In this document: in pieces, positions 23,343 through 26,210 of the stretch
Layout: each line of letters begins with the position of its first letter
Numbering within the stretch: position 1 is the stretch's first letter
Assembly: GCA_043780835.1 (NCBI GenBank)
Contig: JAYWCB010000001.1
Span: 35,896-99,895 of the forward strand
Direction of reading: 5' to 3'
DNA length: 64,000 nucleotides
Source: Minisyncoccota bacterium
GTDB lineage: Bacteria > Patescibacteriota > Minisyncoccia > Phycocordibacterales > UBA2100
Made by a program: the position numbers and the translations under genes
The notes under the pieces: generated by a model
Told to the model about the DNA's origin: nothing
What the model saw: only the letters and a program-made list of their open reading frames with translations
Databases searched by the model: none

Positions 23343-26210
23343 ATGAAGTCGTACGATCACAAGAAAATTGAGCAAAAGTGGCAAAAACAGTGGGCAAAAG
23401 AGGGCGCGTACAAAACAGATGCCGATACGTCAAAACCTAAATATTACGTACTCGACATGTTTCCGTATCCGTCCGGTGCGGGGCTTCACGTAGGGCATCC
23501 AAAAGGCTACATAGCGTCTGACATTGTTGCGAGAAAGAAGCGCGCAGAAGGATATCGCGTGTTACATCCGATGGGCTGGGACGCATTTGGACTACCGGCG
23601 GAAAATTACGCAATCAAAACAGGTACTCCACCGCAGCAAACAACCGACGAGTCCATCGCGACGTTCAAATCTCAGATTTCTAATCTTGCGCTCTCATATG
23701 ACTGGGATCGTGAGATTGGTAGTCATCGACCGGATTACTATCGGTGGACGCAGTGGCTCTTTACAAAATTTTTCGAAAAAGGGCTTGTCTATAAAAAGAA
23801 GGCACTTGTAAACTGGGATCCGGTGGATCAGACTGTACTTGCCAACGAGCAGGTCTTACCCGACGGCACAGCGGAACGCTCCGGCGCAATTGTTGAAAAA
23901 AAAGATCTCGAACAATGGTTTTATAAAATTACTGACTACGCAGATGAGCTTGCCGGCAGCCTCGACACAATCGACTGGCCTGAGTCAACGAAAATAAATC
24001 AACGCAACTGGATCGGTCGCTCAGAGGGCGCAGAAATCGATTTTTACCTGGACTTCGGTGACGAGACAATCAATGCTCGCACGGATCCGCAGGGAAAGCG
24101 CGCGCACATTACCGTATTCACGACCCGACCTGACACGCTCTTTGGTGCTACATACCTTGTGCTTGCCCCGGAGCATCCATGGGTGACACTCGCGCTTGGC
24201 CATACAACGGTGCTTGAAAATAACGATGAGGTTGCACAATACGTGGAATCTTCAAAAAAGAAAACTGATATCGATCGTTTAGCTGCCAACAAAGAAAAGA
24301 CCGGTGTTCAGTTGAAAGGTGTTATGGCGGTCAATCCTGCAACCGGACAAAACATCCCACTCTTTGTTGCTGACTATGTATTGGCTCACTACGGTACCGG
24401 TGCAATTATGGCAGTGCCGGCTCACGACGATCGTGACATGCTTTTTGCCCGCACGTTCGATCTCCCGATTACGCAAGTCGTGGTACCGGTATACGGCGCT
24501 GCAGATAAGAGGCCGGATGCGGTCTTTCGACAAACGATTAATGCAGTAGTTCGCAATGACGACGGGCGTGTTTTGTTTTTGAAATGGAAAGACTACCAAT
24601 GGGTTACAAACGTCATTGGCGGCGTCGAACAGGGAGAAACCATAGAACGCGCTGCCATTCGTGAAGTACTCGAAGAAACCGGGTATCGCACCCGACCAAT
24701 TTTTTCTTCACCGATTGTGATCGAGTCACATTTCTATGCTGAGCACAAAAAGGAATGGCGTTCTCGTATGGATACACCCGTACTGCTTGAACTTGAGAGT
24801 GACCAAAAAGGACCTCTTTCAGAAGAAGAGCGAGAAAAACACGACACCGTATGGATGACATATGAAGAAGCGCAGAAACACGGTCTATTCCATAACAATA
24901 AACTTGCCCTAGATCTTGCCCTCGGAAAAATAATCTCCTACTCGGATCCGCTCTATGGCGAGGAACAGGTGCTCATAAATTCAGGAGAGTTTAATGGCAT
25001 GAATGTCCGTAATGCAAAAAAGGCGATGACTGAAAAATTCGGACGCATAAAGAAGACATATAAAATGCGCGACTGGCTTATTTCGCGTCAGCGATACTGG
25101 GGAACTCCGATTCCGATTGTGTACGATCCGGAAGGGAAGGCTCATGCGATACCTGAGCAGCATTTGCCGTGGCTCCTACCGACTGATGTTGAGTATCTTC
25201 CAAAAGGCACCTCGCCACTCGGGAGTTCGAAAGAATTATTTGAAAGAACGGAACGTATCTTTGGAAAAGGTTGGAAGCCGGAAATCGATACCATGGATAC
25301 CTTTGCGTGCTCTTCGTGGTATTTTTTCCGCTTTGCGGATCCGCATAACAGCGACGAGTTTGCATCAAAGAAAGCTTTGGAGGAATGGCTGCCGGTAGAT
25401 CTCTACATAGGCGGCGCAGAGCACACCGTGCTGCACTTGCTGTACGCACGCTTTTACACCAAAGCGCTACGAGACATGGGATACCTTGATTTCGACGAGC
25501 CGTTTCTTAAATTACGCCATCAGGGTCTGATCGTAGCAGAGGATGGACGCAAAATGAGCAAGCGATATGGCAACGTCATAAATCCTGACGACATCGTAGA
25601 GAGCTACGGAGCAGACACATTACGTGTCTACGAAATGTTTATGGGACCGTTTCAAGATTCGATTGCATGGAATACACAGAGTATGATCGGTTCACGGCGG
25701 TTTCTGGAGCGCGTGTGGCGACTGAGCGAACATGCGGGGGACACGCCTGATGACTCGCTCGAACGGCAGCTCCATCGCACCATTAAAAAAGTGACCGAAG
25801 ATATCGAATTGTTCAAGTTCAATACGGCGATTTCGACACTGATGATATTCGTAAATGAGGCGGAAAAAAAATCTCTGTCCGAAGACCAGTTCGGTCGCTT
25901 CTTGCAGTTGCTCGCACCGTTTGCGCCGCATATTGCAGAGGAACTCTGGCACGAAATCGGCCATATCGAATCTATCGTTTCGTTTCCAATGCCCCTCTAT
26001 GACGACGACATGCTCGAAGAAGATTTTGTAACAGTAGCGATCCAAATAAACGGAAAGACTCGCGCCGACGTTGTGCTCCCTATGGGCACCAATAACGCCG
26101 AAACTGAGACGCGGGCGGCAGAAGCAGTTGCAGCAAGACTCGACGGCAAAACAGTCACGCGCATCATAGTAGTCCCGAACAAATTGGTGAACTTTGTTCT
26201 CACAGAATAG
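23343..26210 (+). CDS. leuS: Leucyl-tRNA synthetase with an inserted Nudix domain
   Basis: 'HVGHPKGY' (HIGH), 'KMSKR', and CP1 editing motifs '[12 protein letters not shown]' and '[15 protein letters not shown]'. At 955 aa it is about 100 aa longer than E. coli LeuRS. Confidence 0.92.
   Translation: [955 protein letters not shown]
24483..24971 (+). other. Nudix hydrolase domain inserted within the CP1 editing domain of LeuRS (aa about 381-543)
   Basis: Perfect Nudix box '[23 protein letters not shown]' (G-x5-E-x7-REUxEExGU) at nt 24618-24686. It lies between the editing-domain motif 'AHDDRD...PITQVV' and 'SGEFNG', where E. coli has only about 25 aa. Confidence 0.6.

Follow-up and report, generated by a model that had tools for sequence, protein, structure and literature searches.

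Leucyl-tRNA synthetase (LeuRS) is among the best-studied editing aminoacyl-tRNA synthetases (aaRSs) and serves as a drug target, with the benzoxaboroles binding to its CP1 editing domain. Hydrolytic assistance to aminoacylation is also provided by stand-alone trans-editing proteins such as AlaX, YbaK/ProX, and D-Tyr-tRNA deacylase, which cleave aminoacyl-tRNA esters and have aaRS-derived folds; we know of no Nudix fold among them. In characterised Nudix enzymes, the glutamates of the REUxEE motif bind metal and catalyse hydrolysis. Here, we describe a LeuRS in which a Nudix hydrolase domain is nested within CP1, encoded by leuS in a stretch of 64,000 nucleotides (the window) of contig JAYWCB010000001.1 from a Minisyncoccota bacterium. 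All nucleotide positions given for this gene and its neighbours are those of the 64-kb window, while residue numbers refer to the 955-residue LeuRS unless another protein is named.

Compared with the structurally characterised bacterial LeuRSs of Escherichia coli (4AQ7/4ARC), Thermus thermophilus (1H3N/2BYT), and Neisseria gonorrhoeae (6Q89), the window protein shares the catalytic core, the HIGH and KMSKS signatures, the CP1 motifs, and the anticodon-binding and C-terminal domains (phmmer E=2e-205), but differs in carrying a Nudix segment of about 156 residues in place of a 13-residue loop and in lacking the leucine-specific domain. The free-standing Nudix hydrolases of the (di)nucleoside-polyphosphate type set beside the insert, such as the T. 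thermophilus Ap6A hydrolase Ndx1 (1VC8) and Mycobacterium tuberculosis Rv2985 (9CXX), are only 17-26% identical to it; the insert has a subfamily signature of its own, is nested, and is known from sequence. A further parallel is offered by the NCBIfam family NF040702, 'isoleucine--tRNA ligase, N-acetyltransferase domain-containing', which, judged by its model name only, likewise combines a class Ia editing aaRS with an extra enzymatic domain, there of the GNAT instead of the Nudix type. Full-text literature searches retrieved no paper on a Nudix domain, or any other hydrolase, nested in the CP1 domain of LeuRS, and the word 'synthetase' is absent from a 2017 review of the Nudix clan (PMC5389931).

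A Nudix domain nested in the CP1 domain

The leuS gene (23343..26210, + strand) is a single open reading frame (ORF) of 955 codons plus stop with neither an internal stop codon nor a frameshift. Its product scores 949.8 bits with the bacterial LeuRS model TIGR00396 (leuS_bact, NCBIfam; cutoff 548.4), in a match that the insert splits in two, and Pfam recognises the class I catalytic core, the anticodon-binding domain, and the editing domain PF13603. The protein is colinear with T. thermophilus LeuRS up to residue 380 (T. thermophilus 362) and again from residue 537 (T. thermophilus 376), so that about 156 residues stand in place of the 13-residue CP1 loop of the latter. The insert, at a position that we call site B, consists of linker, Nudix domain, and linker (24483..24962, + strand; residues 381-540) and corresponds to the gap against T. 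thermophilus LeuRS 362-376.

On both sides of the insert, the editing domain is intact. Its N-terminal part extends to the insertion point (24003..24482, + strand) and gives the PF13603 match (residues 221-386, 185 bits), which is incomplete, covering profile positions 1-146 of 185, because it is interrupted by the insert. This part contains the T-rich motif TTRPDT (24120-24137, + strand; residues 260-265), in which T260, T261, R262, D264, and T265 are invariant in 67 full-length LeuRS homologues, the set to which all conservation counts below refer, as well as the GTG...AHDDRD editing motif (24393-24437, + strand; residues 351-365, with AHDDRD at 360-365), in which D362, R364, and D365 are likewise invariant. 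The C-terminal part (24963..25076, + strand; residues 541-578) follows the insert, where the alignment is back at T. thermophilus residue 376, carries the INSGEFNG segment at residues 545-552, and ends with KTYKMRDW. These findings agree with the original prediction, made from the bare sequence, of one uninterrupted 955-residue LeuRS frame with an in-frame insertion at 24483-24971 (residues 381-543) rather than a fused neighbouring gene; the proposed segment fits the alignment gap at residues 380/537.

The Nudix domain itself (PF00293; 24528..24887, + strand; residues 396-515) scores 52.5 bits (E=6.6e-14) within the complete protein and 58.1 bits when the segment is excised (gathering cutoff 21.1). 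Its Nudix box (24618..24686, + strand; residues 426-448), with the catalytic and metal-binding residues E441, E444, and E445, satisfies the consensus GX5EX7REUXEEXGU at each specified position and is thus fully canonical, a textbook box as had been claimed. It is followed by a putative X-loop, the specificity loop (24732..24767, + strand), with an aromatic pair 16-17 residues past the box, K469, and R473. The 67-sequence alignment yielded an AlphaFold2 model of the complete protein that has a mean pLDDT of 89.5 and a pTM of 0.78 and superposes on bacterial LeuRS (E. coli 4aq7, TM 0.85 normalised to the target). Within the insert, blocks of ten residues reach pLDDT values of about 89-95 in the whole chain, and the segment modelled alone reaches 91.1; it shows the alpha/beta/alpha sandwich of the Nudix fold with the box on a loop-helix-loop. 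The insert is, in short, an autonomous Nudix-fold domain nested in a peripheral, length-variable CP1 loop of a functional-looking bacterial LeuRS. An intein or another self-inserting element was considered and rejected: the upstream junction falls between TQVV and VPVYG, the residues of a splice junction (Cys/Ser, and His-Asn followed by Cys/Ser/Thr) are missing, and neither direct nor inverted repeats bracketing the insert were found at the DNA level. The base composition shows no break across the insert.

The motifs of the synthetic site are also present. The HIGH-type signature HVGH (23487..23498, + strand; residues 49-52) has H49, G51, and H52 invariant among the homologues, and the same holds for K737, S739, and K740 of the KMSKS loop, which here reads KMSKR (25551..25565, + strand; residues 737-741). 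The leucine-specific domain that would precede this loop is absent: residues 733 and 737 of the window protein correspond to T. thermophilus 580 and 637, and T. thermophilus 581-636 have no counterpart (residues 733-741 lie at 25539-25565). The relatives of the window LeuRS, including those without an insert, also lack this domain, which is typical of the LeuRS family but not universal. Downstream of leuS, cysS (26217..27737, - strand, 506 residues) is convergently oriented, with 6 nt separating the stop codons; upstream lie genes for YchF, for a membrane protein with DUF5671, and for a response-regulator receiver domain on its own. Taken together, the gene neighbourhood in the window (YchF, DUF5671, response regulator, CysRS, CorA, S41 peptidase, and L9) provides no functional clue.

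Distribution, conservation, and exchange of the module

Independent assemblies from NCBI, JGI, and Logan contain the same architecture at 85-88% identity, so that a chimeric assembly is ruled out. In a collection of 5.8 billion proteins (NCBI, JGI, ENA, and Logan assemblies), PF00293 is present in about two-thirds of the best 120 LeuRS homologues, and the named PF00293-bearing ones are labelled Paceibacterota, Kaiserbacteria, Adlerbacteria, Pacebacteria, or Minisyncoccia, all names within the Patescibacteria or Candidate Phyla Radiation (CPR). A scan of the GTDB species representatives with a single query sequence, the matches of which are biased toward copies with the peptide EVLEETGY, placed the insert within LeuRS ORFs of about 950-1100 residues labelled as Paceibacterota, Berkelbacteria, Moraniibacteriota, Buchananbacteria, Parcubacteria, and many Saccharibacteria. 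An exhaustive HMMER search of 1.84 billion cluster representatives with a profile of the insert gave 171 matches with E<=1e-30, a number that rises to 703 with E<=1e-10. Of these, the 147 best representatives were retrieved: 99 can be recognised as LeuRSs, five ambiguous ones proved on checking to be pieces of a LeuRS, and some twenty are true stand-alone proteins 154-199 residues long; no fusion partner other than LeuRS was found in this set. With LeuRS as the sole fusion partner detected and with its wide occurrence, the insert is therefore a distinct Nudix subfamily tied to LeuRS and a lineage-wide feature, not an assembly artefact. Hundreds of independent LeuRSs from Patescibacteria, with Paceibacteria, Saccharibacteria, and Berkelbacteria among them, contain it. 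Public databases label these proteins as leucine--tRNA ligase and, in one case, as 'alpha/beta fold hydrolase'.

The original prediction had regarded the architecture as non-standard. This stands in so far as it is absent from characterised LeuRSs, but the trait is not rare, being widespread in Patescibacteria; of the two circumstances that had been named as speaking jointly against the claim, wide occurrence was thus found, whereas annotation in characterised LeuRS families was not. The other computational checks that had been proposed, namely a profile search, a structure model, and a search for the insert in orthologues, all came out in favour of a nested Nudix domain. In the GTDB scan, two contigs from metagenome-assembled genomes labelled Candidatus Woesearchaeota (DPANN archaea), one of them 420 kb long, were also found to encode bacterial-type LeuRSs with a nested Nudix domain (L003 1900-4779 and L014 625-3561), which reflects either mis-binning or mislabelling or a transfer between CPR and DPANN.

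The insert evolves faster than the protein that harbours it, with a mean pairwise identity of 36% across the 67 homologues as compared to 63% for the core, yet its key residues are retained. E441, E445, K469, and W504 are found in every homologue; G426 (66 sequences), G447 (65), E444 (61), and Y448 (61) are nearly invariant, and R396 (60), R473 (60), and E496 (61) are well kept. The aromatic pair of the X-loop is represented by F or Y at position 464 in 64 sequences and by Y or F at position 465 in 65, and the subfamily signature comprises R396, W415, F/Y-Y/F-x-x-x-K469, R473, and W504. About 28% of the embedded copies belong to a variant, here termed Q-type, in which E432 is replaced by Q or M together with R440 by M, A, or K, with E441 and E445 kept. 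In comparison with the closest locus for which DNA was available, synonymous sites are saturated (pS 0.89), so that pN/pS instead of dN/dS has to be considered; pN amounts to 0.118 in the insert and 0.077 in the core. Set against the pS value, the pN of the insert indicates that it is under strong purifying selection.

Site B is one of two places in CP1 at which additional domains are accommodated. The other, site A, is a variable linker ahead of the VFTTRPDT segment (24033..24119, + strand; residues 231-259), which is short, at about 30 residues, in the window protein and measures 17-30 residues in most sequences. At site B, between AHDxRD...LPI and NSGEFNG, minimal forms have 34 residues and Nudix-bearing forms 205-213. 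Several Patescibacteria LeuRSs with the same core (up to 84-95% identity N-terminally) carry other hydrolases at these same two sites, the window protein being the version with one Nudix domain at site B and the site A linker just described. In P0007 and P0016, a Nudix domain is accompanied by an alpha/beta-hydrolase that resembles YdeN/RBBP9 and occupies site A (residues 245-435 of P0007), while P0058 and P0075 combine Nudix with a Ham1/RdgB-like NTP pyrophosphatase, also at site A (residues 252-394 of P0058). In P0043, a HAD hydrolase at site B (residues 387-542) replaces the Nudix domain; a sequence search of the PDB with this HAD insert returned no useful match. Furthermore, 13 representatives contain two or three Nudix domains in the arrangements A+A, A+B, B+B, or A+A+B, with P0122 and P0123 being triple. 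In the tandem embedded pairs (P0122-P0125), the first copy is canonical and the second Q-type, a pairing that hints at a heterodimer-like pair. In at least one representative, a Nudix domain was also observed at a third position, past RQRYWG in the second half of the catalytic domain (P0132 residues 677-820; also P0169 582-713).

Core and insert do not share one history. LeuRSs with an insert are interspersed with others that have none and that are just as similar in the core, and the identities of core and insert are only weakly correlated (Mantel r=0.26). When the regions on either side of the insert were compared separately (residues 1-375 vs 545-955; P0013 and P0015 were compared in this way), P0013 proved to share 90% of its N-terminal core residues with the window protein and 72% of those in the C-terminal core, with an insert identity of 30%; for P0032, the corresponding values are 59%, 54%, and 68%, and P0002 retains 91% and 86% in the two core regions. 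The gene leuS itself is mosaic, a pattern that suggests recombination breakpoints near the CP1 insert. It follows from the stark incongruence of core and insert in P0013 and P0032 that leuS genes have traded the module among themselves, in some cases with the 3' half of the gene moving along; recombination between the highly conserved flanking sequences is the most likely route. Because the histories of core and insert disagree, strictly vertical inheritance from one ancient insertion event was rejected.

Free copies of the module also occur next to leuS. In a Saccharibacterium (L018), a free Q-type Nudix gene (686-1450) scoring 190.9 bits against the insert profile lies immediately upstream of a Nudix-bearing leuS (1454 onward). 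In HRGM_Genome_3016 (L015, 25% GC), an intact, insert-less leuS (70-2544) is followed 90 nt on by an ORF of 283 codons (2635-3483) that encodes a LeuRS CP1 remnant with a nested Nudix domain and degenerate editing Asp residues. This ORF represents either a stand-alone protein made up of CP1 remnant plus Nudix or the footprint of an integrated fragment of a foreign leuS. It resembles a free-standing editing-domain paralogue and thus recalls the trans-editing proteins, which are likewise auxiliary hydrolases serving aminoacylation fidelity. The window itself contains three free-standing Nudix genes (32768-33268, + strand; 41032-41442, - strand; 42036-42473, - strand) for proteins of 166, 136, and 145 residues, all of which have a canonical box and reach 65-84 bits with the Pfam NUDIX model; against the insert profile, the first of them scores 36 bits. 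The idea that the insert is the only Nudix enzyme of the genome, fused for economy, was rejected on account of these three genes.

Candidate functions of the nested domain

The explanation that we place first, with about even confidence, is that the nested domain is an active, Mg2+-dependent pyrophosphohydrolase that sits on CP1 and clears a nucleoside-polyphosphate compound near the synthetase. Tethered to the mobile, swivelling CP1 domain, it would cleave such a small molecule in the immediate vicinity of the enzyme, the likeliest substrates being dinucleoside polyphosphates of the Ap4A/Ap3A type or aberrant NTPs. Compounds of the Ap4A type arise as side products when an enzyme-bound aminoacyl-adenylate reacts with ATP. 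LeuRS itself would retain normal aminoacylation and editing, and organisms that depend on scavenged nucleotides would thereby have linked local nucleotide clean-up to a translation enzyme that is essential and constitutively expressed. A polyphosphate nucleotide is proposed because the catalytic glutamates are conserved, because three conserved basic residues (R396, K469, and R473) and the aromatic pair would suit such a ligand, because the structural neighbours of the insert lean to the ApnA/DIPP class, and because a Ham1-type NTP pyrophosphatase shares the neighbouring site in relatives. ApnA hydrolase activity has been found to go along with a conserved X-loop Tyr that lies about 17 residues past the box (Dunn 1999, reviewed in PMC5389931); Y465, at a distance of 17 residues and Y or F in 65 homologues, would match it by sequence position, the marker not being exclusive to ApnA hydrolases. 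The original prediction had offered the hydrolysis of Ap4A or of aminoacyl-adenylates as a speculative function; the sequence evidence leans mildly towards a nucleoside polyphosphate as substrate and lends no support to an aminoacyl-adenylate. Several observations weigh against this explanation: the insert falls far below the cutoffs of the curated ApnA/RppH equivalogs (19-26 bits with the RppH models vs cutoffs of 116-241), its best NCBIfam Nudix model, NudB, gives 33 bits vs a cutoff of 103, three free-standing Nudix genes are found within the same 64 kb, and loss of the module is evidently tolerated.

The same tolerance, together with the interchangeability of the inserts, raises the possibility, to which we assign a smaller yet real share of confidence, that the insert is an ordinary house-cleaning Nudix enzyme unrelated to LeuRS and merely lodged in a permissive loop, given that the two CP1 boundary loops tolerate insertions and that, in a streamlined genome, a domain fused to an essential gene is certain to be expressed. 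The occurrence at the same two sites of four hydrolase folds unrelated to each other (Nudix, alpha/beta-hydrolase, Ham1-like, and HAD), patchy presence and absence among LeuRSs of equal core similarity, modules that swap independently of the core, and minimal relatives that do without the whole loop region (34 residues between the anchors) would all be expected of such a passenger. Less readily explained in this manner are the restriction of the fusions of this subfamily to LeuRS among the top 147 representatives, the presence of up to three Nudix copies in one LeuRS, and the stand-alone copies that adjoin leuS in two loci, in one of them within a CP1 remnant; moreover, economy is a weak motive for fusion in a genome that already has free-standing Nudix enzymes. 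A purely technical origin, be it misassembly, a missed frameshift, or two neighbouring genes read as one, which the original prediction had raised as a caveat and for which no sign was found, can be dismissed with near certainty, as the frame is uninterrupted with CP1 sequence on both sides and without compositional break, the model is a confident single chain, and the same architecture is present in >100 independent assemblies from four data sources and several classes of Patescibacteria.

Catalysis might also be beside the point. A structural, tRNA-binding, or ligand-sensing (allosteric) CP1 appendage, perhaps offsetting the missing leucine-specific domain, appears unlikely to us, although these LeuRSs do lack that domain, 23 of the 67 sequences carry the E432 to Q/M and R440 to M/A/K replacements, the tandem pairs of canonical and Q-type copies resemble enzyme/pseudo-enzyme pairs, and Nudix-fold proteins without an enzymatic role are known, according to the Nudix-clan review (PMC5389931). 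The invariance of E441 and E445 even in Q-type copies, the strong conservation of E444, K469, R473, and E496, and the fully canonical box of the window copy argue for an enzyme instead, and compensation is not required, as insert-less relatives lack the leucine-specific domain as well. Its position within the editing domain invites yet another proposal, namely that the module destroys misactivated adenylates (Nva-AMP or Ile-AMP, as pre-transfer editing in cis) or toxins that mimic leucyl-adenylate. Fast evolution (36% vs 63% identity), swaps, variable copy number, and alternative folds form a pattern reminiscent of conflict or adaptation, and the fold matches of the model include 3zgz, a LeuRS complexed with the leucyl-adenylate mimic TM84 from agrocin 84. 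Nudix substrates, however, are generally known to contain a pyrophosphate linkage, with acyl-phosphate and phosphoramidate adenylates being handled by HIT-family enzymes or by the aaRS, and the canonical editing site is intact and leaves no fidelity gap to fill, which makes this proposal rather improbable. A broader variant, which we consider an outside chance, would see CP1 as a docking platform on which rapidly evolving hydrolase cassettes replace one another and act on adenylate- or nucleotide-type molecules at the synthetase, in pre-transfer clean-up or toxin immunity, with the shuffling resembling an arms race.

Significance for LeuRS and for Patescibacteria

LeuRS with a Nudix domain in CP1 is real, widespread, and uncharacterised; both of its parts come from well-known families, and their modular evolution is unexpectedly rich. 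A whole second enzyme nested in CP1 occurs in no characterised LeuRS; much of the CPR has conserved it. Coupling of the Nudix activity to LeuRS, if it exists, would reveal that nucleotide by-products, alarmones (Ap4A, for instance), or adenylate poisons can be dealt with where they arise, in a way not seen before, and should CP1 indeed be a docking platform, aaRS quality control or self-protection would have gained a new principle. If the two activities are uncoupled, the locus would still be a striking natural case of domain-insertion tolerance and cassette exchange in an essential gene, of use to protein engineers and in marking Patescibacteria as a lineage. Either way, the finding bears on the housekeeping chemistry of these ultra-small, nucleotide-scavenging symbionts.

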